A DNA stretch of 64,000 nucleotides from the sequence record PV390659.2. One strand, given 5' to 3'. Each line of letters begins with the position of its first letter. Position 1 is the stretch's first letter. A model generated the notes under the pieces. That model searched no databases. It had not been told where the DNA came from and saw only the letters and a program-made list of their open reading frames with translations. The translations under genes were made by a program, and so were the position numbers. Source of the DNA: Escherichia phage vB_EcoM_P8. Shown here piece by piece: positions 3,215 through 45,330 of this stretch.

Positions 3215-4144
3215 ATGAAAACTCGTAAACATTATATTGATTATTTTGATAGTCTTATTACTAAACATCGTAATTATCAGATAGGACACAGAGCAGTAAT
3301 CAATAATATTCTTCGTGATTTTTTAGACTATATTGGATGGGAAAACCATATTTGTAAAGATACACAAAATGCGTATTCACATTCTCTTGGTTCTTTGCTA
3401 GAGTGGTTCAAACGTTCCCGATTACTATCTTCTGTGATAGCTCGTGATAACATTAAAAACTTTATGAAGCCGAGCTTTATTAAATCTGAGACATCTATAA
3501 CTGATTTGGTTGAATTTACTATTGTTAACGATGTTAAAAAGACCCATTTGGCTGATTGGTTATCTACCATTCCTGAAACTAAATTTGCTGATAAATTTGC
3601 TTGTCAATTCAATGACCAAGTGAATATGCTTTTTAAGCATGCTCGCAGACTATTTACCGCAGGCGATGACCGTACAAATACAGTTCATGTTAAGGATTGG
3701 GTTATTGCTGATGAAGTAACACACAAGCCAGGTGGTTCATCAGTATTAATTAATATCCAGGTTCCTTATTATTACTCACGTAATCTTGGCACCATGACAG
3801 CTAGAGAAATTAATAAGCACAACAAAACTATTCGTTCGTTGTCTTATAAACTCTGCACGATGGTGGAGATGATGGACGTAGTGGAAATGTATGACGAAAC
3901 CGAAGATAATGGTTCAATGTTATACAGCTCACGCATTCTAATTAAACTGAAGAATCCTAATACATATAAGCCAGTTGTAAAAGAACCTAAAGTAGAAAAG
4001 GTTGATAACCTGAGCGAAGAACGTGAATATCTCAATGCTCGTTTGATTGAAGTTGAAGCTCAGATTGCCGAACATACCAAATTGTTAAAAGCTCTTAATG
4101 CAAAAGCAAATGGTTTACGTAATGCTATTGAGGTACTGAAATGA
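3215..4144 (+). CDS. hypothetical protein, member D of four-paralog array, C-terminal coiled coil
   Basis: 309-aa ORF; shared N-terminal motif with member C; coiled-coil C-terminus. Confidence 0.65.
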   Translation: MKTRKHYIDYFDSLITKHRNYQIGHRAVINNILRDFLDYIGWENHICKDTQNAYSHSLGSLLEWFKRSRLLSSVIARDNIKNFMKPSFIKSETSITDLVEFTIVNDVKKTHLADWLSTIPETKFADKFACQFNDQVNMLFKHARRLFTAGDDRTNTVHVKDWVIADEVTHKPGGSSVLINIQVPYYYSRNLGTMTAREINKHNKTIRSLSYKLCTMVEMMDVVEMYDETEDNGSMLYSSRILIKLKNPNTYKPVVKEPKVEKVDNLSEEREYLNARLIEVEAQIAEHTKLLKALNAKANGLRNAIEVLK

Positions 4145-4458
4145 AAAAGCGCTTATTAGAAGATATTGCAGCTTCAAGTAATTCCAGTCTAATTAAAATT
4201 ATTATGGCTGGTGAAGAAGACGATCTAGAAATGCGTGGAAAGATTCATGGCGATGATGATCTAGACTTTAAACCTCCTGCTTGGGATGCCATTATGGTTA
4301 TGGTTGAACGCCGCGAAAGGGCTTCTAAGAATGTTCCGAACTGCCCAAAATGTGGTACTGAACAGGTTCAATTAATTCATTGGCAGACTAGTAATCTTCG
4401 TTATAAATGTCGTCATTGCAAACACCGATTTAACCGAGAAGAAAATGACCAAGCGTAA
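4141..4458 (+). CDS. small zinc-ribbon protein
   Basis: 105-aa ORF, ATGA stop-start overlap; C-terminal CPKCG..17..CRHC motif. Confidence 0.55.
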
Positions 4459-4687
4459 AGAATATATGGAGATTGCTGAAAAGGCAGTCCGTGAATTAGC
4501 AATAGCGTATTATAATGAACACGGTAAATTTCCTGATAGATACAGCGTGCTTAAATCAGCTTTAACTCGTTCATATAAAAATATGCTATCAGAAGTAAGT
4601 GATATTATATACAAACATAAAGAACAAACAGGTCAAAGTCTTGATTACGACGAGACTTTTAAACAAGTACTAGGAATTAAGGAATAA
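4445..4687 (+). CDS. hypothetical protein
   Basis: 80-aa ORF tightly packed upstream of nrdC. Confidence 0.5.
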
Positions 4688-4688
4688 T

Positions 4689-4952
4689 ATGTTTAAAGTA
4701 TATGGTTATGATAGCAACATCCACAAATGTGTGTATTGCGATAATGCAAAACGTCTTTTGACTGTGAAGAAACAGCCGTTTGAATTTATCAACATTATGC
4801 CGGAAAAAGGTGTTTTTGATGATGAGAAAATTGCTGAGCTTCTGACGAAACTAGGTCGTGATACTCAAATTGGCTTGACGATGCCTCAGGTATTTGCTCC
4901 TGATGGAAGTCATATTGGTGGATTTGACCAATTGCGGGAATACTTTAAATGA
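4689..4952 (+). CDS. nrdC: phage thioredoxin/glutaredoxin NrdC
   Basis: 87 aa, CVYC redox motif, sequence matches remembered T4 NrdC. Confidence 0.9.
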   Translation: MFKVYGYDSNIHKCVYCDNAKRLLTVKKQPFEFINIMPEKGVFDDEKIAELLTKLGRDTQIGLTMPQVFAPDGSHIGGFDQLREYFK

Positions 4953-28566: not shown

Positions 28567-29994
28567 GTGGTAGAAATTATTCTTTCTCATCTCATATTTG
28601 ATCAAGCTTATTTTTCAAAAGTTTGGCCATATATGGATTCAGAATATTTTGAAAGTGGTCCAGCTAAAAATACATTCAAATTAATTAAATCTCATGTCAA
28701 TGAGTACCATAGCGTTCCATCTATTAATGCGTTAAATGTTGCATTAGAAAATAGTTCATTTACTGAAACAGAATATTCTGGTGTAAAAACACTTATTTCA
28801 AAACTGGCCGATTCTCCGGAAGACCATAGCTGGTTAGTAAAAGAAACAGAAAAATATGTTCAGCAAAGGGCGATGTTTAACGCCACATCTAAAATAATTG
28901 AAATTCAAACCAATGCTGAGCTTCCTCCGGAAAAACGCAATAAGAAAATGCCAGATGTAGGTGCTATTCCTGACATCATGCGCCAAGCATTATCAATTTC
29001 ATTTGATAGTTACGTTGGTCATGATTGGATGGATGACTACGAAGCACGTTGGCTATCTTATATGAATAAAGCTCGTAAGGTTCCATTTAAACTCAAAATT
29101 CTAAATAAAATTACTAAAGGCGGAGCTGAGACTGGAACACTGAACGTTTTAATGGCTGGTGTTAACGTTGGTAAGTCATTAGGTCTGTGTTCATTGGCAG
29201 CAGATTATTTACAGCTCGGTCATAATGTTCTTTACATTTCAATGGAAATGGCAGAAGAAGTCTGTGCTAAACGTATTGATGCTAATATGCTTGACGTTTC
29301 TCTTGATGACATTGATGATGGGCATATTTCTTACGCTGAATATAAAGGAAAAATGGAAAAATGGCGTGAGAAATCTACTCTTGGACGTTTAATCGTTAAA
29401 CAGTATCCTACTGGTGGAGCAGACGCTAATACATTTCGTTCTCTTTTGAACGAATTGAAGCTCAAGAAGAATTTTGTTCCAACAATCATTATTGTCGACT
29501 ATCTAGGTATTTGTAAATCTTGTCGCATCAGAGTTTATTCAGAAAATAGTTACACAACTGTTAAAGCTATCGCAGAGGAATTGCGTGCTCTGGCTGTTGA
29601 AACCGAAACTGTTCTTTGGACTGCAGCGCAGGTTGGTAAGCAAGCTTGGGATTCTTCTGATGTTAACATGAGCGATATTGCAGAATCTGCCGGTCTTCCA
29701 GCAACAGCCGATTTTATGCTTGCGGTCATTGAAACCGAGGAGTTAGCAGCTGCTGAACAACAACTAATTAAGCAAATCAAATCACGATATGGTGATAAGA
29801 ATAAATGGAATAAGTTTTTGATGGGTGTTCAAAAAGGAAATCAGAAATGGGTAGAAATTGAACAAGATTCTACTCCAACTGAAGTGAACGAAGTAGCAGG
29901 TTCACAACAGATACAAGCTGAGCAGAATCGCTATCAAAGAAATGAATCTACTCGAGCCCAGTTAGATGCTTTGGCAAATGAATTAAAATTTTAG
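28567..29994 (+). CDS. 41: replicative helicase gp41 (DnaB-like)
   Basis: 475 aa, GTG start, Walker A GVNVGKS. Confidence 0.95.
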   Translation: MVEIILSHLIFDQAYFSKVWPYMDSEYFESGPAKNTFKLIKSHVNEYHSVPSINALNVALENSSFTETEYSGVKTLISKLADSPEDHSWLVKETEKYVQQRAMFNATSKIIEIQTNAELPPEKRNKKMPDVGAIPDIMRQALSISFDSYVGHDWMDDYEARWLSYMNKARKVPFKLKILNKITKGGAETGTLNVLMAGVNVGKSLGLCSLAADYLQLGHNVLYISMEMAEEVCAKRIDANMLDVSLDDIDDGHISYAEYKGKMEKWREKSTLGRLIVKQYPTGGADANTFRSLLNELKLKKNFVPTIIIVDYLGICKSCRIRVYSENSYTTVKAIAEELRALAVETETVLWTAAQVGKQAWDSSDVNMSDIAESAGLPATADFMLAVIETEELAAAEQQLIKQIKSRYGDKNKWNKFLMGVQKGNQKWVEIEQDSTPTEVNEVAGSQQIQAEQNRYQRNESTRAQLDALANELKF

Positions 29995-30023
29995 TTTACA
30001 AGCTGACAAGACTATGGTATAGT
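29994..30023 (+). promoter_or_regulatory. T4-type early promoter
   Basis: gtttac 29994-29999, tatagt 30018-30023. Confidence 0.55.
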
Positions 30024-30052
30024 AGTCTTGTTGGTTAAATGAGGAGATTGTT

Positions 30053-30235
30053 ATGGAATTGGTAAAGGTAGTTTTTATGGGGTGGTTTAAGAATGAAAGC
30101 ATGTTTACTAAAGAAATTACAATGATGAAAGATGACGTTCAATGGGCTACTACTCAATATGCTGAAGTTAATAAAGCTTTAGTTAAAGCTTTCATTGATG
30201 ACAAGAAAGTATGCGAAGTGGATTGCCGAGGATAA
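30053..30235 (+). CDS. dmd: Dmd, antitoxin against host RnlA/LsoA
   Basis: 60 aa, matches remembered T4 Dmd. Confidence 0.85.
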   Translation: MELVKVVFMGWFKNESMFTKEITMMKDDVQWATTQYAEVNKALVKAFIDDKKVCEVDCRG

Positions 30236-30236
30236 T

Positions 30237-30458
30237 ATGCATATCGTTTTATTTAAACCTACTCCATATAATGTCAGGAAAAATACTCAATTCAAGGCAC
30301 TTATTGCGGATACGTGGGAATTGGTGTTAGATATTCCAGCAGAAGAAAGCCCTCCATTTGGTCGAGTGGAATTTATTAAGTTTGCTGTGCGCCCTACGAA
30401 GCGACAGATTCGTCAATGCAAAAGATACTTTCGTAAAATCGTCAAGTTAGAGAAATAG
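30237..30458 (+). CDS. hypothetical protein (61.x region)
   Basis: ATG 30237 two nt after dmd stop; track alternative 30195. Confidence 0.5.
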   Translation: MHIVLFKPTPYNVRKNTQFKALIADTWELVLDIPAEESPPFGRVEFIKFAVRPTKRQIRQCKRYFRKIVKLEK

Positions 30459-30481
30459 TTATTGATGCTAGTAAAATAGTA

Positions 30482-30511
30482 GTTTACAAGCTGATAGAGT
30501 TGTGTTATAGT
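30482..30511 (+). promoter_or_regulatory. T4-type early promoter
   Basis: gtttac 30482-30487, tatagt 30506-30511; near copy of promoter at 29994. Confidence 0.55.
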
Positions 30512-30542
30512 AATTCTATCAGCTAATCGCGGAGAAAAGAAA

Positions 30543-30785
30543 ATGATGCTAGTTAATAGAGAATATCAGTTTAAATCAGAAGAAGATTTGGAAAAATTCG
30601 CAAGTGGTTGTGAACTGAATAGACGCACAGCTAAAGTCATAGGATTAAAACCCTTTACAGTTCTAGATTGTGAAGTTTCTAAATTCCGCAGAGGGTGTTC
30701 TATTAGCGGTCATGCTCTGGTTGATGGGAACACATTTTTCTTTGTTTTTAGCGTCAGAGAACTTTTATTGATTAACGAACTCTAG
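30543..30785 (+). CDS. hypothetical protein (61.x region)
   Basis: 80-aa ORF. Confidence 0.5.
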   Translation: MMLVNREYQFKSEEDLEKFASGCELNRRTAKVIGLKPFTVLDCEVSKFRRGCSISGHALVDGNTFFFVFSVRELLLINEL

Positions 30786-30854
30786 GAAATAAAATAGTTT
30801 ACTTTTGTTGGAAATTGAGATACTATATAAACATAAACTACTGAGGAGATTATC

Positions 30855-31148
30855 ATGAAAAAATTTGTTTTTGCTGCAATTTTTGCTTTAGCTTCTTGTG
30901 CTGCTCAGCCTGCTATGGCAGGTTATGATAAAGATTTGTGCGAATGGTCTATGACTGCAGATCAGACTGAGGTTGAAACTCAGATTGAAGCAGATATTAT
31001 GAATATCGTTGAGCGTGATCGCCCTGAAATGAAAGCTGAAGTACAAAAACAGCTTAAGTCTGGTGGTGTAATGCAGTATAATTACGTTCTGTATTGTGAT
31101 AAAAACTTCAATAATAAAAATATCATCGCTGAAGTGGTAGGTGAATAA
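30855..31148 (+). CDS. sp: Spackle (Sp) periplasmic superinfection exclusion protein
   Basis: 97 aa with signal peptide; GAGGAG RBS. Confidence 0.8.
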   Translation: MKKFVFAAIFALASCAAQPAMAGYDKDLCEWSMTADQTEVETQIEADIMNIVERDRPEMKAEVQKQLKSGGVMQYNYVLYCDKNFNNKNIIAEVVGE

Positions 31149-31774
31149 TGCTTTATCAAATGCACAAGTGCAAAGACACGTACAAATATAAAGGTGCCCA
31201 GTGTTATATCATTAATCGTGAAAACGCAGGTCCAGGTCATTCGCATCAATCACGGTTTGTATTCGTTAAAAACAACGAAATTATAGCAGTTGCTAATTAC
31301 GTGCTTGTGACTAATGATGTTAATCCGGTGCCTTTTACATATTATAATCTAATGGACTTGGCGTACGATTATAATTGGTTTAATCATGATACTTTGGCTC
31401 ATATTGAAGGTGTAGGATTTGACATCTCTTATTCTAGTTACTCGTTGTGTCCTATGAGCCGAGCTCATAAAGAGCCTGAATATTTTTCATTTCGTCGGCG
31501 TGTAGACTTTAAACGCAGCGCAGAGTATGTCGGTGGAATCTTTGTTAAAGGTAATCGAATTACTCGCATTATTTATCCTTTGGGTTGCGGTCAAAAAGAT
31601 ATTGATGTTGATTTAGACTTTACTGAAAACATCATTAATCATATTGCTTCTGTGTATTTTGATATTGATCACAAAATTGTAATATGTGGATATGAATTAC
31701 CATCAGAAAAACAATCTAAAGTGAAAGTTTCTATTGACGATCAAATTTTTAACGCTTTTATGAATAGAGGTTAA
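31148..31774 (+). CDS. hypothetical protein (61.2-like position)
   Basis: 208-aa ORF with ATGA coupling to sp. Confidence 0.6.
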   Translation: MLYQMHKCKDTYKYKGAQCYIINRENAGPGHSHQSRFVFVKNNEIIAVANYVLVTNDVNPVPFTYYNLMDLAYDYNWFNHDTLAHIEGVGFDISYSSYSLCPMSRAHKEPEYFSFRRRVDFKRSAEYVGGIFVKGNRITRIIYPLGCGQKDIDVDLDFTENIINHIASVYFDIDHKIVICGYELPSEKQSKVKVSIDDQIFNAFMNRG

Positions 31775-31775
31775 T

Positions 31776-31940
31776 ATGAAAACATATAAAGAATTTATCA
31801 AAGAAGATATGGTAGCTGGAGATTCAGGTGGTAATCCTGAAAATATCTCTACTGGAACAACGTCAGGCGCTGTAGTAAATAAAGGTCCTGAACAGATTCC
31901 TAAAAAGAAAAAAGAGGAATCTAAAGAAAAAGAAGAGTAA
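31776..31940 (+). CDS. hypothetical small protein (54 aa)
   Basis: ATG after GAGG; lysine/glutamate-rich tail. Confidence 0.4.
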   Translation: MKTYKEFIKEDMVAGDSGGNPENISTGTTSGAVVNKGPEQIPKKKKEESKEKEE

Positions 31941-31943
31941 AAA

Positions 31944-32972
31944 ATGTCATCAATACCTTGGATTGATAATGAGTTTGCATATCGTGCGCTAGCTCATTTA
32001 CCTAAATTCACACAAGTAAATAATAGTTCAACTTTTAAATTACGGTTTAGATGCCCTGTTTGTGGAGATTCAAAAACCGACCAAAATAAAGCTCGTGGAT
32101 GGTATTATGGCGATAATAATGAAGGAAATATTCATTGCTATAACTGTAACTATCATGCACCAATCGGAATATATTTAAAGGAGTTTGAACCTGATTTATA
32201 TCGTGAGTATATCTTTGAAATAAGAAAAGAAAAAGGTAAAAGTCGTCCAGTAGAAAAACCTAAAGAACTTCCTAAACAACCCGAGAAGAAAATAATTAAA
32301 TCTCTTCCGTCATGCATTAGATTAGATAAACTGACGGAAGACCATCCAATTATAAAATACGTAAAAGCTCGTTGTATTCCAAAGGATAAATGGAAATATC
32401 TTTGGTTTACAACCGAATGGCCTAAATTAGTTAATAGTATAGCACCAGGAACATATAAAAAGGAAATACCTGAGCCTCGTCTTGTTATTCCAATTTATAA
32501 TGCTAATGGAAAAGCTGAGTCTTTTCAAGGACGTGCATTAAAGAAAGATGCTCCTCAAAAATATATCACCATCAAAGCTTATCCTGAGGCAACAAAAATC
32601 TATGGTGTTGAACGAGTTAAAGATGGTGATGTATATGTTCTAGAAGGACCTATAGATTCACTTTTTATTGAAAATGGTATAGCTATTACAGGCGGTCAAT
32701 TAGACCTAGAAATTGTTCCATTTAAAGATAGACGAGTATGGGTTTTGGATAATGAACCTCGTCATCCTGATACTATTAAACGAATGACTAAATTAGTTGA
32801 CGCAGGAGAAAGGGTTATGTTTTGGGATAAATCTCCCTGGAAATCAAAAGATGTTAATGATATGATTAGAAAGGAAGGTGCAACCCCTGAACAAATTATG
32901 GAATATATGAAAAATAATATTGCCCAAGGGTTGATGGCTAAAATGCGGCTATCTAAATATGCTAAGATTTAA
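31944..32972 (+). CDS. 61: DNA primase gp61
   Basis: 342 aa, zinc ribbon CPVCGD..CYNC, TOPRIM-like core. Confidence 0.9.
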   Translation: MSSIPWIDNEFAYRALAHLPKFTQVNNSSTFKLRFRCPVCGDSKTDQNKARGWYYGDNNEGNIHCYNCNYHAPIGIYLKEFEPDLYREYIFEIRKEKGKSRPVEKPKELPKQPEKKIIKSLPSCIRLDKLTEDHPIIKYVKARCIPKDKWKYLWFTTEWPKLVNSIAPGTYKKEIPEPRLVIPIYNANGKAESFQGRALKKDAPQKYITIKAYPEATKIYGVERVKDGDVYVLEGPIDSLFIENGIAITGGQLDLEIVPFKDRRVWVLDNEPRHPDTIKRMTKLVDAGERVMFWDKSPWKSKDVNDMIRKEGATPEQIMEYMKNNIAQGLMAKMRLSKYAKI

Positions 32973-33169
32973 ATTAATCCAACTAAAGCAAATGCTAAAT
33001 CTACGAATGTATCGAGAGTAATTACTGGAATACTAACGCCATGAGCAATAGCAATTGGCGATAAAATAAAGTTCCATAGTAAAATTCCTATCATAGCAGA
33101 AATAGTAAAAGCTATACGTTTTTTATTACCTTTTATGGCATTAACAAGTGCCATTAATTTTTGTACCAT
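32969..33169 (-). CDS. small membrane protein on the opposite strand (66 aa, two predicted TM helices)
   Basis: strong AGGAGG RBS 7 nt before ATG; convergent 4-nt overlap with gene 61 stop; + strand here is otherwise a 300-nt non-coding gap. Confidence 0.5.
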   Translation of the reverse strand: MVQKLMALVNAIKGNKKRIAFTISAMIGILLWNFILSPIAIAHGVSIPVITLDTFVDLAFALVGLI

Positions 33170-33218: not shown

Positions 33219-33248
33219 GTTTACTTTCTCAGCTTGCTGTGGTATTAT
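33219..33248 (+). promoter_or_regulatory. T4-type early promoter driving 186-aa ORF and dam
   Basis: gtttac 33219-33224, tattat 33243-33248; GAGGA RBS before ATG 33274. Confidence 0.6.
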
Positions 33249-33273: not shown

Positions 33274-34613
<1,340 letters not shown>

Positions 34614-39005: not shown

Positions 39006-39035
39006 GTTTACAAGCTGAAGTAAAAATGTTATAGT
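39006..39035 (+). promoter_or_regulatory. T4-type early promoter
   Basis: gtttac 39006-39011, tatagt 39030-39035. Confidence 0.55.
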
Positions 39036-42632: not shown

Positions 42633-42662
42633 GTTTACTTCCTCGGTTAGTTGTGGTATTAT
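42633..42662 (+). promoter_or_regulatory. T4-type early promoter
   Basis: gtttac 42633-42638, tattat 42657-42662. Confidence 0.6.
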
Positions 42663-42689
42663 AACATCATAGCTACTGAGGATAATAAA

Positions 42690-43190
42690 ATGAAAATTTA
42701 TCGTGTTGAATCATCTTTTAGTATTCTTAATTATGAAGATGCTATAACAATACGTCGAAATCTTTGTGTTCAAATAACGCCGTACAGGAGTATAATAGAT
42801 TCATGGAGCGAAGAGTGGTTATTACACGTAGGTTATGATAGACCTAATTTTATGCATCATAGCGATAATAATAAAAGAATTCCTTTACCACACGAAGATA
42901 AACTATTAGTTAAAAACGCTAATATAGTAATTAATACTAAGTTCAAGAAAGATTATGTTGGAGTAGAATATCATATTCCAGGATGGTTTATAGCTCTTTA
43001 TCATTTTGCTTTCGCTAGTGAATATGATATGATGAGATGGTTCACACGAGAAGAACGTGAAGAATTATCTTCTAAAGGATTTTATCTTGCTGTATATGAA
43101 GTTCCTGAAGATGAAGTTATCATTGGCGGGCACCAAGTAATGTTCCGCAAATCGCATGCTGAACTCGTAGATTTTATTGAAATGAGATAA
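42690..43190 (+). CDS. hypothetical protein, possibly MotB by position
   Basis: ORF track 42651..43190; ATG 42690 after GAGGA. Confidence 0.4.
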   Translation: MKIYRVESSFSILNYEDAITIRRNLCVQITPYRSIIDSWSEEWLLHVGYDRPNFMHHSDNNKRIPLPHEDKLLVKNANIVINTKFKKDYVGVEYHIPGWFIALYHFAFASEYDMMRWFTREEREELSSKGFYLAVYEVPEDEVIIGGHQVMFRKSHAELVDFIEMR

Positions 43191-43192
43191 AT

Positions 43193-43735
43193 ATGAAATT
43201 TAATTATAATCCTGAATACACACCAAACCCGGTAGCTAAACTGATTGATTTTGATGTTGTAAGCACTTATGTATGCCCTGTTAAACCACTGGAAATTAAG
43301 GAACCTACTATGACTACCGCTATTGAAATCGGCAAAACCTACAAATTGGTTGAACCTGAAATTAAAACTAAGGCCTTGATTTCTGGTTATAAAACTCTGA
43401 CTGATGTTTTTGGCGAAGGCGAATTTATTGTTGAAGAATTTGCCAAAAGTGGCTGGTTTGCCAAATCTTACGTCATTCACGGTCGTCGTTTAGACAATAA
43501 CAAAATAGAGAAAATCCTGGTTTATGAAGCAGAGTTCATCCTGTTCCAAGAAGTTGAAGAACAAGACCCTACCGACCTTTTAACTCGTGCTGTAGCTATC
43601 AAGACCCCATTTATTTCGGTCTATGGTTGGGTAACAGACCAATGGATTGAAGATGGCGTTGAACTTCTGAATGTTGTGCATGCAGGCGATTTTAGTGTAG
43701 TACCTCGTAGTGCGGTGGTAGCTATTTTAAATTAA
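43193..43735 (+). CDS. hypothetical protein, paralog pair member 1
   Basis: 180 aa; C-terminal TDQWIEDGVELLN shared with next ORF. Confidence 0.5.
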   Translation: MKFNYNPEYTPNPVAKLIDFDVVSTYVCPVKPLEIKEPTMTTAIEIGKTYKLVEPEIKTKALISGYKTLTDVFGEGEFIVEEFAKSGWFAKSYVIHGRRLDNNKIEKILVYEAEFILFQEVEEQDPTDLLTRAVAIKTPFISVYGWVTDQWIEDGVELLNVVHAGDFSVVPRSAVVAILN

Positions 43736-43737
43736 TA

Positions 43738-43767
43738 GTTTACAAACTCTTGGGATCAGAGTATAAT
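43738..43767 (+). promoter_or_regulatory. T4-type early promoter
   Basis: gtttac 43738-43743, tataat 43762-43767. Confidence 0.55.
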
Positions 43768-43811
43768 GGTCCCGTGGAGTATAAAATCTTTTTAACAAGT
43801 GAGAGATAACT

Positions 43812-44689: not shown

Positions 44690-44905
44690 ATGAAACGTAA
44701 AATTGTTCAGAACTGCACTAATGACGAATTTGAAGATGTGTTATTCGATCCAGATTTGGTAGTAGTTCAAAAGGAACACACTGCTAAGTTTACTCACTTG
44801 ACTTCGGTTTATGTGTATGAAAAGGTTGGGGATAAACAACCAATTTACGGTGTATTTCGTGAAATCACTGAAGACGGTACGACTTACTGGAAGGAAATTT
44901 ATTAA
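44690..44905 (+). CDS. hypothetical protein
   Basis: 71-aa ORF. Confidence 0.45.
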
Positions 44906-45330
44906 TGGCTATTAAATTTGAAGTTAATAAATGGTATCAATTTAAAAATAAACAAGCTCAAGAAAAATTTATTAAATATCATACTGAAAACGGAATTTAT
45001 GCACGACGTTTAGGTATGGAACCTTTTAAAGTTATAGATATTGACTATCTTGGTCGTCCTACTAAAATTGTGACATCTACTGGAATATTGGCATTATCCT
45101 CCGGTAAAGATATTTTGGATGAAGATTTTATTTGGCTTTCTACTAGCGAAGCTGAATTCTTTGATGAAGTTGAAAATCCATACCAGGCAGCTGAAGAGCA
45201 AGAGCAGGAAGAGAAAGAGCAAGAACAAATAGAAGATTTCACAGAATTTCCTGTCATGAAAGTTACTATTGAAAATAATGAACAGGCATGGTCCTTGTAT
45301 CAGATGTTGAAAGCACACTTTAAGGAATAA
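44905..45330 (+). CDS. hypothetical protein with acidic [11 protein letters not shown] tract
   Basis: 141-aa ORF. Confidence 0.5.

Follow-up and report, generated by a model that had tools for sequence, protein, structure and literature searches.

The interval between gene 41 (helicase) and gene 61 (primase) of bacteriophage T4, which carries dmd, tifA, and adfA, was termed the 'anti-TA island' (TA, toxin–antitoxin) by Srikant et al. 2022 (PMC9391042), and its further genes were considered attractive antitoxin candidates in the same work (PMC9391042). Dmd binds and blocks the RNase toxins RnlA and LsoA (PMC9391042, PMC3014915). The product of gene 61.4, renamed tifA, binds and inhibits the endoribonuclease ToxN, and neutralisation of ToxN has been demonstrated for the T4, T2, T6, and RB69 alleles (PMC9391042). 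The product of gene 61.2 is AdfA, an anti-DarT factor (PMC9391042), described as anti-DarT1 (PMC11257639). Spackle, the product of gene sp, acts in the periplasm, where it inhibits gp5, the tail lysozyme of superinfecting phage (PMC7677548). The dmd–tifA operon of T4 was reported to be under an early promoter (PMC9391042). We analyzed the corresponding region of Escherichia phage vB_EcoM_P8 (positions 28,567–31,940 of the window, the 64,000-nt stretch of record PV390659.2 to which all coordinates refer). With a probability of about 0.88, this region is the hyperplastic 41–61 interval of a T4-type phage, i.e., the published T4 anti-TA island, organized in three early transcription units; the reading includes those of ORF C and gp61.1 given below.

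The gene map was based on a listing of open reading frames (ORFs), direct reading of the sequence, and the annotations of phages T4, IME537, and BMB16. The examined region was 100% identical to that of Escherichia phage vB_EcoM_BMB16 (PV102577.1, genus Tequatrovirus); in total, 646 phage records matched the region, of which 230 covered 80% or more of it. All ORFs and both promoters of the initial annotation were found in their places by the ORF list and direct reading, and its interpretation of the locus as an anti-defence and exclusion island was right, although already in print (PMC9391042). The same genes were present in the same order as in T4, with proteins 95–100% identical, and the dmd and sp promoters as well as the translational coupling were common to both phages. 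The window differed from T4 by an added promoter and ORF C, forming a cassette between tifA and sp, and by a TifA of 73 aa vs. 85 aa in T4. No counterpart of ORF C was detected in the T4 41–61 interval by BLASTP against T4 proteins. The system as a whole is therefore not new: this phage has a minority arrangement of it, with a short TifA and a cassette encoding a GoF-type domain. Searches of NCBIfam with all six proteins of the island, and of Rfam with positions 29500–32500 at an E-value threshold of 1, gave no matches.

Dmd was 100% identical to T4 Dmd and matched Pfam PF17587 (1.6e-46 over residues 1–60); by this identity, it is predicted to be an inhibitor of RnlA/LsoA. The start codon of tifA was located 1 nt past the dmd stop; the TTG start listed for this ORF, giving 87 aa, differed from the start annotated in T4 and BMB16. 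The 73-aa product corresponded to residues 1–73 of T4 TifA at 100% identity (BLASTP) and matched Pfam DUF7279 (1.6e-20). It ended with K73 through a change of CAG to TAG at the cassette junction, and the 12-residue C-terminal extension of the T4 protein was absent. The residues invariant between T4 and RB69 TifA were all kept in the window allele, the basic cluster RPTKRQIRQ.KR.FRK was invariant in the three proteins, and the window TifA reached 3 residues past the end of the 70-aa RB69 allele. RB69 TifA also has no extension, yet it is the more potent ToxN inhibitor (PMC9391042); therefore, the extension is not required for membership in TifA. The 73-aa TifA of the window is a predicted ToxN inhibitor.

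Spackle was 97% identical to T4 Sp and matched Pfam PF25676 (T4_Spackle, 4.8e-45). An N-terminal signal peptide was read from the sequence, with the leader MKKFVFAAIFALASCAAQPAMA preceding G and a cleavage site of AMA/G; the protein would be exported to the periplasm, where it would inhibit the gp5 lysozyme of superinfecting phages. The proposed coupling of the 208-aa ORF to sp was borne out by its ATG, which overlapped the sp stop codon (TAATG). This ORF was 95% identical to T4 61.2 and matched Pfam PF23813 (AdfA) with 1.5e-134 over residues 1–208; its product would bind DarT1. His165 of the window AdfA aligned with position 164 of the RB69 protein, the window and T4 having ..NIINHIAS.. vs. 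..NNINRIAS.. in RB69. Histidine at RB69 AdfA position 164 characterizes the DarT1-neutralising allele (PMC11257639).

Two points weigh against these assignments. Deletion of T4 adfA had no phenotype against DarTG1, even in phage also lacking adfN (PMC11257639), AdfN (gp30.3) being the major anti-DarTG1 factor identified in that study (PMC11257639); because of this result, the natural target of AdfA may be another DarT. Moreover, the four inhibitor mechanisms—those of Dmd, TifA, Spackle, and AdfA—are carried over to this phage from the literature on the T4 and RB69 proteins, with sequence identity as their sole link.

The initial annotation had recognized only dmd and sp and treated the remaining four ORFs as candidate inhibitors of host defences. 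That all four are uncharacterised and equally good candidates for new defence inhibitors is very improbable: they do lie where anti-defence genes cluster (PMC9391042), and the BMB16 record names them 'hypothetical protein', but two of them are TifA and AdfA with published functions and mechanisms, identity thus refuting the proposal for these, and gp61.1 (the 54-aa product of 61.1) is kept across genera beside the primase gene even where the island is otherwise empty, unlike variable counter-defence cargo. The description as a candidate fits ORF C; it does not fit TifA, AdfA, or the conserved gp61.1. The profile searches suggested for the four ORFs yielded DUF7279 for TifA, PF23813 for AdfA, phrog_2980 for ORF C, and gp23 for gp61.1.

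Three early transcription units are proposed for the island: promoter P1 would serve dmd–tifA, P2 would serve ORF C, and Psp would serve sp–adfA–61.1, the last unit probably extending by read-through into gene 61. The initial claim that two near-duplicate promoters (29994 and 30482) drive all six genes did not hold, since the third promoter, Psp (30797–30826), precedes sp. The two sites themselves are real: P1 (29995–30023) and P2 (30483–30511) both had the form TTTACA-N17-TATAGT with an upstream TG, and with 10/12 matches they were the two best scan matches in the region. The pattern GTTTAC..TAnnnT had 21 occurrences on the + strand of the window, compared with a single one on the − strand; therefore, P1 and P2 belong to the real T4 early-promoter class and are not chance matches. 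Their description as near-duplicates was overstated. P1 and P2 shared 69–70% identity over 64 nt, which ranked fifth among the 210 pairs of early-promoter-like sites in the window (mean 45%, standard deviation 10%, other pairs up to 75–78%), and a site at 39006 had the same GTTTACAAGCTGA start. A local duplication was rejected on these grounds; the similarity reflects the family consensus. Psp (TTTACT-N17-TACTAT) was identical to the T4 sequence upstream of sp and fits the PST/T4 early consensus TTTACW-N17-TAYWAT (PMC4122927). AAAAT tracts were present upstream of all three promoters.

P1 and P2 were each folded into a hairpin enclosing the −10 element: a 15-bp hairpin at 30001–30036 in P1 (minimum free energy (MFE) −18.9 kcal/mol, z −6.2, with none of 200 shuffled sequences reaching this stability) and a 14-bp hairpin at 30489–30524 in P2 (MFE −18.0, z −5.0). 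The predicted fold of Psp was no better than that of shuffled sequences, and a hairpin of this kind was found in only 4 of the 21 early-promoter-like sites of the window. Covariation was analyzed in four copies: P1, P2, and the promoters of ORF C homologues on two metagenomic T4-like contigs, L013 and L014. In this set, 96% of cells were paired, and 6 of the 14 pairs had compensatory double changes, while slid controls were at most 59% paired. Owing to its many G-U pairs, the + strand hairpin RNA was far more stable than its complement, which points to a role of the hairpin in read-through transcripts from upstream. Two further promoter-like sites of the window, 42633–42682 and 43738–43787, had the −10 hexamer in the loop of a hairpin (MFE −20.5 and −17.1 kcal/mol, z −5.5 and −4.5, respectively), again with the + strand far more stable than the reverse complement; the former is located just upstream of motB.2 (42690–43184) and the latter just downstream of a motB.1-like match (43502–43648).

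The closest described elements are the promoter-early stem-loop (PeSL) cassettes known from T4-type phages (Arbiol et al. 2010, PMC2839356; Comeau et al. 2014, PMC4122927). These cassettes mediate modular shuffling; their stem-loop stands upstream of the promoter, where it functions as a terminator (PMC2839356, PMC4122927). The window elements resemble them in the combination of an early promoter of the sigma-70 type, AT-rich on its upstream side, with a conserved stem-loop at a small accessory ORF, and in the presence or absence of the ORF between close relatives with the breakpoint at the promoter. Two differences count against the comparison: the window hairpins overlap the promoter, enclosing the −10 element, instead of lying upstream of it, and they have no U-tract. 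Terminator activity and mini-circles belong to the published cassettes; for the window, the likeness was read from the nucleotide sequence.

In the alignment with T4, 341 nt of the window stood in place of 41 nt, which in T4 extend from codon 74 of tifA as far as the −35 element of Psp. The breakpoints were at ~30456 and ~30797, and homology with T4 restarted exactly at GTTTAC of the sp promoter. The 341-nt segment comprised P2 as a complete early promoter, together with a ribosome-binding site and ORF C. P2 with ORF C is a self-contained cassette of the PeSL type, which replaces, relative to T4, the last 12 tifA codons and the spacer before the sp promoter. As a possible trace of a circular intermediate, the repeat ATGATGCTAGT, found at 30464 and 30543 near the left junction, was considered and dismissed for lack of significance, because a stretch of 2.1 kb would by chance contain about two exact 10-mer repeats.

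In junction-specific searches, 441 phage records had the junction of the T4 type, and 74 had that of the window. ORF C itself was found in 83 phage records (tblastn), in 70 of them with at least 95% identity; the other 13 copies, with ~56% identity, belonged to SP18-like phages, and in Gaprivervirus SP18 ORF C was located directly after gene 41. On contigs L013 and L014, homologues with 78–80% identity were located upstream of tifA, following a 253-aa ORF, and dmd was absent. These homologues were preceded by the same promoter, hairpin, and ribosome-binding site. As these elements accompany ORF C on the two contigs too, the mobile unit is the promoter–gene cassette, and it stays inside the 41–61 interval.

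ORF C was assigned to phrog_2980 of the PHROGs database ('goF mRNA metabolism modulator', 3.4e-19). BLASTP with GoF gave 37% identity over 41 aa, and the alignment of the profile of six short proteins with the GoF profile by hhalign (97.2%, E 3e-11) placed residues 3–81 of ORF C on residues 6–90 of GoF, i.e., on the whole N-terminal domain (residues 1–91) as described by Kim et al. 2025 (PMC12152347). ORF C ended where this domain ends (80 aa, 84 aa in relatives), with neither linker nor C-terminal domain. We therefore regard ORF C as a stand-alone homologue of the GoF N-terminal domain, predicted to form a small LSm/SH3-like beta-barrel. The predicted fold was of low confidence, its weak structural neighbours being the SH3-like barrels FeoA and IdeR, the same as for the GoF family. 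The family to which GoF, MotB.1, as well as Frd.2 belong, restricted to Tevenvirinae, has an LSm-like fold (Kim et al. 2025, PMC12152347), and like its members, ORF C is an early gene confined to T4-like phages; it differs in its size, single domain, Cys3-His set, and location in the 41–61 interval, goF proper being also present in the window at 44905–45327 with 86% identity to T4 GoF. Cys23, Cys43, Cys52, and His57, the residues of this set, did not vary within the short subfamily and were not present in GoF, which suggests a new binding or metal site. The position of GoF Asp25 was occupied by Gly in ORF C. The ratio of nonsynonymous to synonymous substitution rates (dN/dS) was 0.10–0.17 where dS was unsaturated, indicating purifying selection. 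At 30780–30785, the stop codon TAG of the window and BMB16 corresponded to GAG in IME537, which adds four codons (84 aa); the change of GAG to TAG reflects either a nonsense mutation particular to the strain or a difference in sequencing. In the motB.1 region of the window (43502–43648), the match to T4 MotB.1 was limited to the C-terminal 51 residues (49%), and the N-terminal LSm-like domain of this protein may have been replaced or have highly diverged in this phage.

By its homology, ORF C would bind RNA or an RNA-handling protein early in infection, and two more specific roles were weighed. ORF C may be a GoF-like RNA-binding modulator of phage transcripts, stabilising or processing the early and middle mRNAs of the 41–61 interval; we consider this possible, though not probable. 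The homology extends over the whole GoF N-terminal domain, the variant GoF(D25Y) stabilises RNA with the gene 41 leader (PMC12152347), and ORF C is located just downstream of gene 41 among transcripts with conserved hairpins. However, stabilisation of RNA with the 5' untranslated region of gene 41 was seen only with the D25Y variant, wild-type GoF as well as MotB.1 did little in the reporter assay, and no function was demonstrated for wild-type GoF (PMC12152347); in addition, ORF C has no GoF C-terminal domain, carries Gly for Asp25, and has no confident fold prediction, all of which speaks against such a role. Alternatively, ORF C may be a counter-defence barrel, blocking a host RNase-type toxin or another effector in the manner of Dmd and TifA, a role we would likewise call possible but less than probable. 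It is confined to the 41–61 island, where it occurs in three arrangements, twice adjoining tifA; its distribution is patchy (83 records vs. the 646 matching the region); it has its own early promoter and is under purifying selection; and the Cys23/Cys43/Cys52/His57 set is specific to its subfamily. This case is one of association: no similarity of ORF C to known anti-defence proteins was found, and the parent family GoF/MotB.1/Frd.2 has no known link to defence, its knock-outs being without phenotype in laboratory hosts (PMC12152347). The RNA-directed and the counter-defence roles of ORF C are about equally likely.

The last gene of the island, 61.1, had a different pattern of conservation. 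Its product was 96% identical to T4 61.1, and homologues were found by tblastn in 1,396 phage records, with hosts including Escherichia, Klebsiella, Acinetobacter, Aeromonas, and Enterobacter; one match was located inside gene 23 of Acinetobacter phage 133. In seven of eight contexts (T4, the window, SP18, RB69, Aeromonas phage 31.2, Acinetobacter phage Lazarus, and contig L014), 61.1 was directly upstream of gene 61; the remaining context was a Cronobacter phage, in which a 73-aa ORF was located between the two genes. In Aeromonas phage 31.2, 61.1 was the sole gene between 41 and 61. Our conclusion is that gp61.1 is tied to the primase gene as its conserved partner and does not belong to the cargo of the island.

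The 54-aa protein consists of three parts: a leader similar to a capsid targeting sequence (CTS, residues 1–10), a gp23-like module (residues 2–38), and a Lys/Glu-rich tail. Residues 2–38 were 43% identical to residues 57–93 of T4 gp23 over 37 residues, and gp23 was the only significant match of the gp61.1 family profile among PDB chains (E 4e-8 over residues 48–101 with the full-length chain, e.g., 6uzc, and ~1.5e-5 with the mature gp23* chains, e.g., 5vf3). In this alignment, I8-K9-E10/D11 of gp61.1 was placed on L63-T64-E65/A66 of gp23, which we take to be the published maturation cleavage site (slash, position of the cut). The third residue of the mature gp23* chains in PDB aligned with I68, supporting a cut of gp23 after E65. 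L63-T64-E65 fits the I/L-x-E rule of cleavage by gp21 (PMC12991175), and a hydrophobic residue and Glu ([LIVM]-x-E) were kept at this position across the gp61.1 family. The leader MKTYKEFIKE shared 8 of 10 residues, including Y4, F7, I8, and E10, with MKTYQEFIAE of the internal proteins IPII and IPIII; in a CTS, positions 4 and 7 serve targeting and positions 8 and 10 processing (PMC9026906). At the DNA level, the leader of the window matched ipII/ipIII in 22 of 23 nt, and that of T4 matched ipI in 22 of 22 nt. The leader motif occurred once in the six-frame translation of the window. Such a leader is a feature of gp61.1 in Tequatroviruses.

Entry of gp61.1 into the prohead followed by a gp21 cut after Glu10 is the best-supported concrete hypothesis for this protein. 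In its full form, which we hold to be doubtful, gp61.1 would be a packaged peptide: an IP-type leader would direct it into the prohead core, gp21 would cut after Glu10, at a site taken over from gp23, and the remaining ~44-residue mimic of the gp23* N-terminus would stay in the head and be injected with the DNA, the long forms of other genera being ancestral. Because the internal proteins sharing this leader are counter-defence proteins, the injected mimic might be one too.

Comparison with the two known protein types gives both likeness and difference. With IPI, IPII, and IPIII of T4, gp61.1 shares CTS residues 4, 7, 8, and 10; however, after processing it would be a peptide of 44 residues similar to the N-terminus of gp23* and not a folded inhibitor, 61.1 adjoins the primase gene and not an ip locus, and its packaging is a prediction. 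With gp23, it shares an L/I-x-E cleavage motif in register, but only ~45 residues are common, a Lys/Arg-rich tail takes the place of the body of gp23 in the gp61.1 family, and the long forms add an unrelated helical N-terminal domain of ~105 residues. In these long forms (140–165 aa), found in most other genera, this domain is followed by the same L-x-E site, then by the gp23-like module, and finally by a tail rich in Lys and Arg; in the model of one of them, the N-terminus was helical and the gp23-like module disordered, and no informative structural neighbour was obtained. In RB69 (2318–2784), the annotated gp61.1 (92 aa) corresponds to residues 64–155 of a 155-aa long form, and the 63-aa ORF032c immediately upstream overlaps the start of the annotated gene; the RB69 gene may be split or misannotated.

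Packaging of gp61.1 has several points against it: the long forms of other genera have no CTS leader, the gene sits in an early/middle transcription unit, and neither proteomic evidence for gp61.1 in heads nor discussion of it there was found in the searchable literature. Instead, gp61.1 may serve the replisome or the expression of gene 61, as an accessory peptide or a translation-coupling upstream ORF, its gp23 likeness being a relic. We rate this as rather unlikely, too. The position of 61.1 immediately 5' of gene 61 in 7 of the 8 contexts, the 3-nt spacing in the window (from the 61.1 stop to the gene 61 ATG), and the retention of 61.1 alone between 41 and 61 in Aeromonas phage 31.2 are in its favour. 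However, it is at the level of protein sequence that the gp23-like module, with its [LIVM]-x-E site, is conserved, which is unexpected for a mere coupling ORF; gaps of 39–47 nt in RB69, Aeromonas phage 31.2, and Acinetobacter phage Lazarus, as well as the intervening ORF of the Cronobacter phage, part 61.1 from gene 61; and the CTS leader has no obvious replication role.

A function of gp61.1 as a decoy in Gol/Lit exclusion was also considered but found no support. The segment shared with gp23 (residues 57–93, in some members up to ~101–106) is located upstream of the Gol core, presumably gp23 residues ~93–122, and in the Gol region the gp61.1 family has its basic tail in place of gp23 sequence. 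Lineage-specific co-variation of 61.1 with the gp23 of the same phage was not seen in the few pairs available.

Features of the 41–61 interval of phage vB_EcoM_P8, in coordinates of the window
Feature	Position	Strand	Basis
Gene 41 (helicase)	28567–29994	+	ORF list, annotations
P1, early promoter with hairpin	29994–30036	+	−35 TTTACA 29995–30000, −10 TATAGT 30018–30023, TG-extended
dmd (61.5), 60 aa	30053–30235	+	T4 identity 100%, Pfam PF17587
tifA (61.4), short allele, 73 aa	30237–30458	+	T4 identity, Pfam DUF7279
Cassette P2 + ORF C, 341 nt	30456–30796	+	Alignment with T4
P2, early promoter with hairpin	30482–30524	+	−35 30483–30488, −10 30506–30511
ORF C, 80 aa, GoF N-terminal domain homologue	30543–30785	+	phrog_2980, hhalign
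Psp, third early promoter	30797–30826	+	TTTACT-N17-TACTAT, no hairpin
sp (Spackle), 97 aa	30855–31148	+	T4 Sp 97%, Pfam PF25676
adfA (61.2), 208 aa	31148–31774	+	T4 61.2 95%, Pfam PF23813
61.1, 54 aa	31776–31940	+	T4 61.1 96%; directly upstream of gene 61
Gene 61 (primase)	from 31944	+	ORF list, annotations

The content of the 41–61 interval varied widely among genera. In RB69 (NC_004928), imm and imm.1, genes of superinfection immunity, were inserted adjoining sp (4012–4690), and two ORFs preceded dmd; a 105-aa ORF ahead of dmd was common to SP18 and RB69. Contig L014 encoded a 144-aa protein whose C-terminus resembled that of AdfA (28% over 111 aa). Such variation would fit a hotspot of genes for exclusion and counter-defence.

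Two ORFs were observed in the window near or past the end of gene 61. On the − strand, a 66-aa hydrophobic ORF (32969–33169) converged on gene 61 with a 4-nt overlap of the 3' ends; it matched phrog_2024 (function not assigned, 1.2e-30), is hypothetical in BMB16 and IME537, and has a similar ORF in RB69. On the + strand, a 186-aa ORF just past gene 61 (33274–33834), with its own early-promoter-like site at 33219, matched phrog_8706 (no assigned function) over its full length and had sub-threshold Pfam matches to three families of restriction endonucleases, DpnII (0.005), BanI (0.005), and HsdR_N (0.02); it may be a candidate nuclease of the PD-(D/E)xK type.

The genes of this island are still annotated as hypothetical in the BMB16 record and in many relatives, and the locus is better labelled dmd–tifA–(goF-like)–sp–adfA–61.1 than as one with four unknowns. 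The cassette cleanly exemplifies shuffling mediated by a promoter within an island of counter-defence genes, and the shortening of TifA by it in ~1 in 9 T4-like phages provides a natural experiment on the TifA C-terminus. ORF C, a minimal member of the GoF family, is the one real candidate left in the island. The covarying promoter hairpins may be new, as may the mimicry of gp23 and of the CTS by gp61.1, which ranks among the most widely conserved small ORFs in T4-like phages; if the proposed packaging is true and the long forms behave alike, a head-associated, protease-processed protein family would be encoded beside the primase gene in ~1,400 sequenced Straboviridae.

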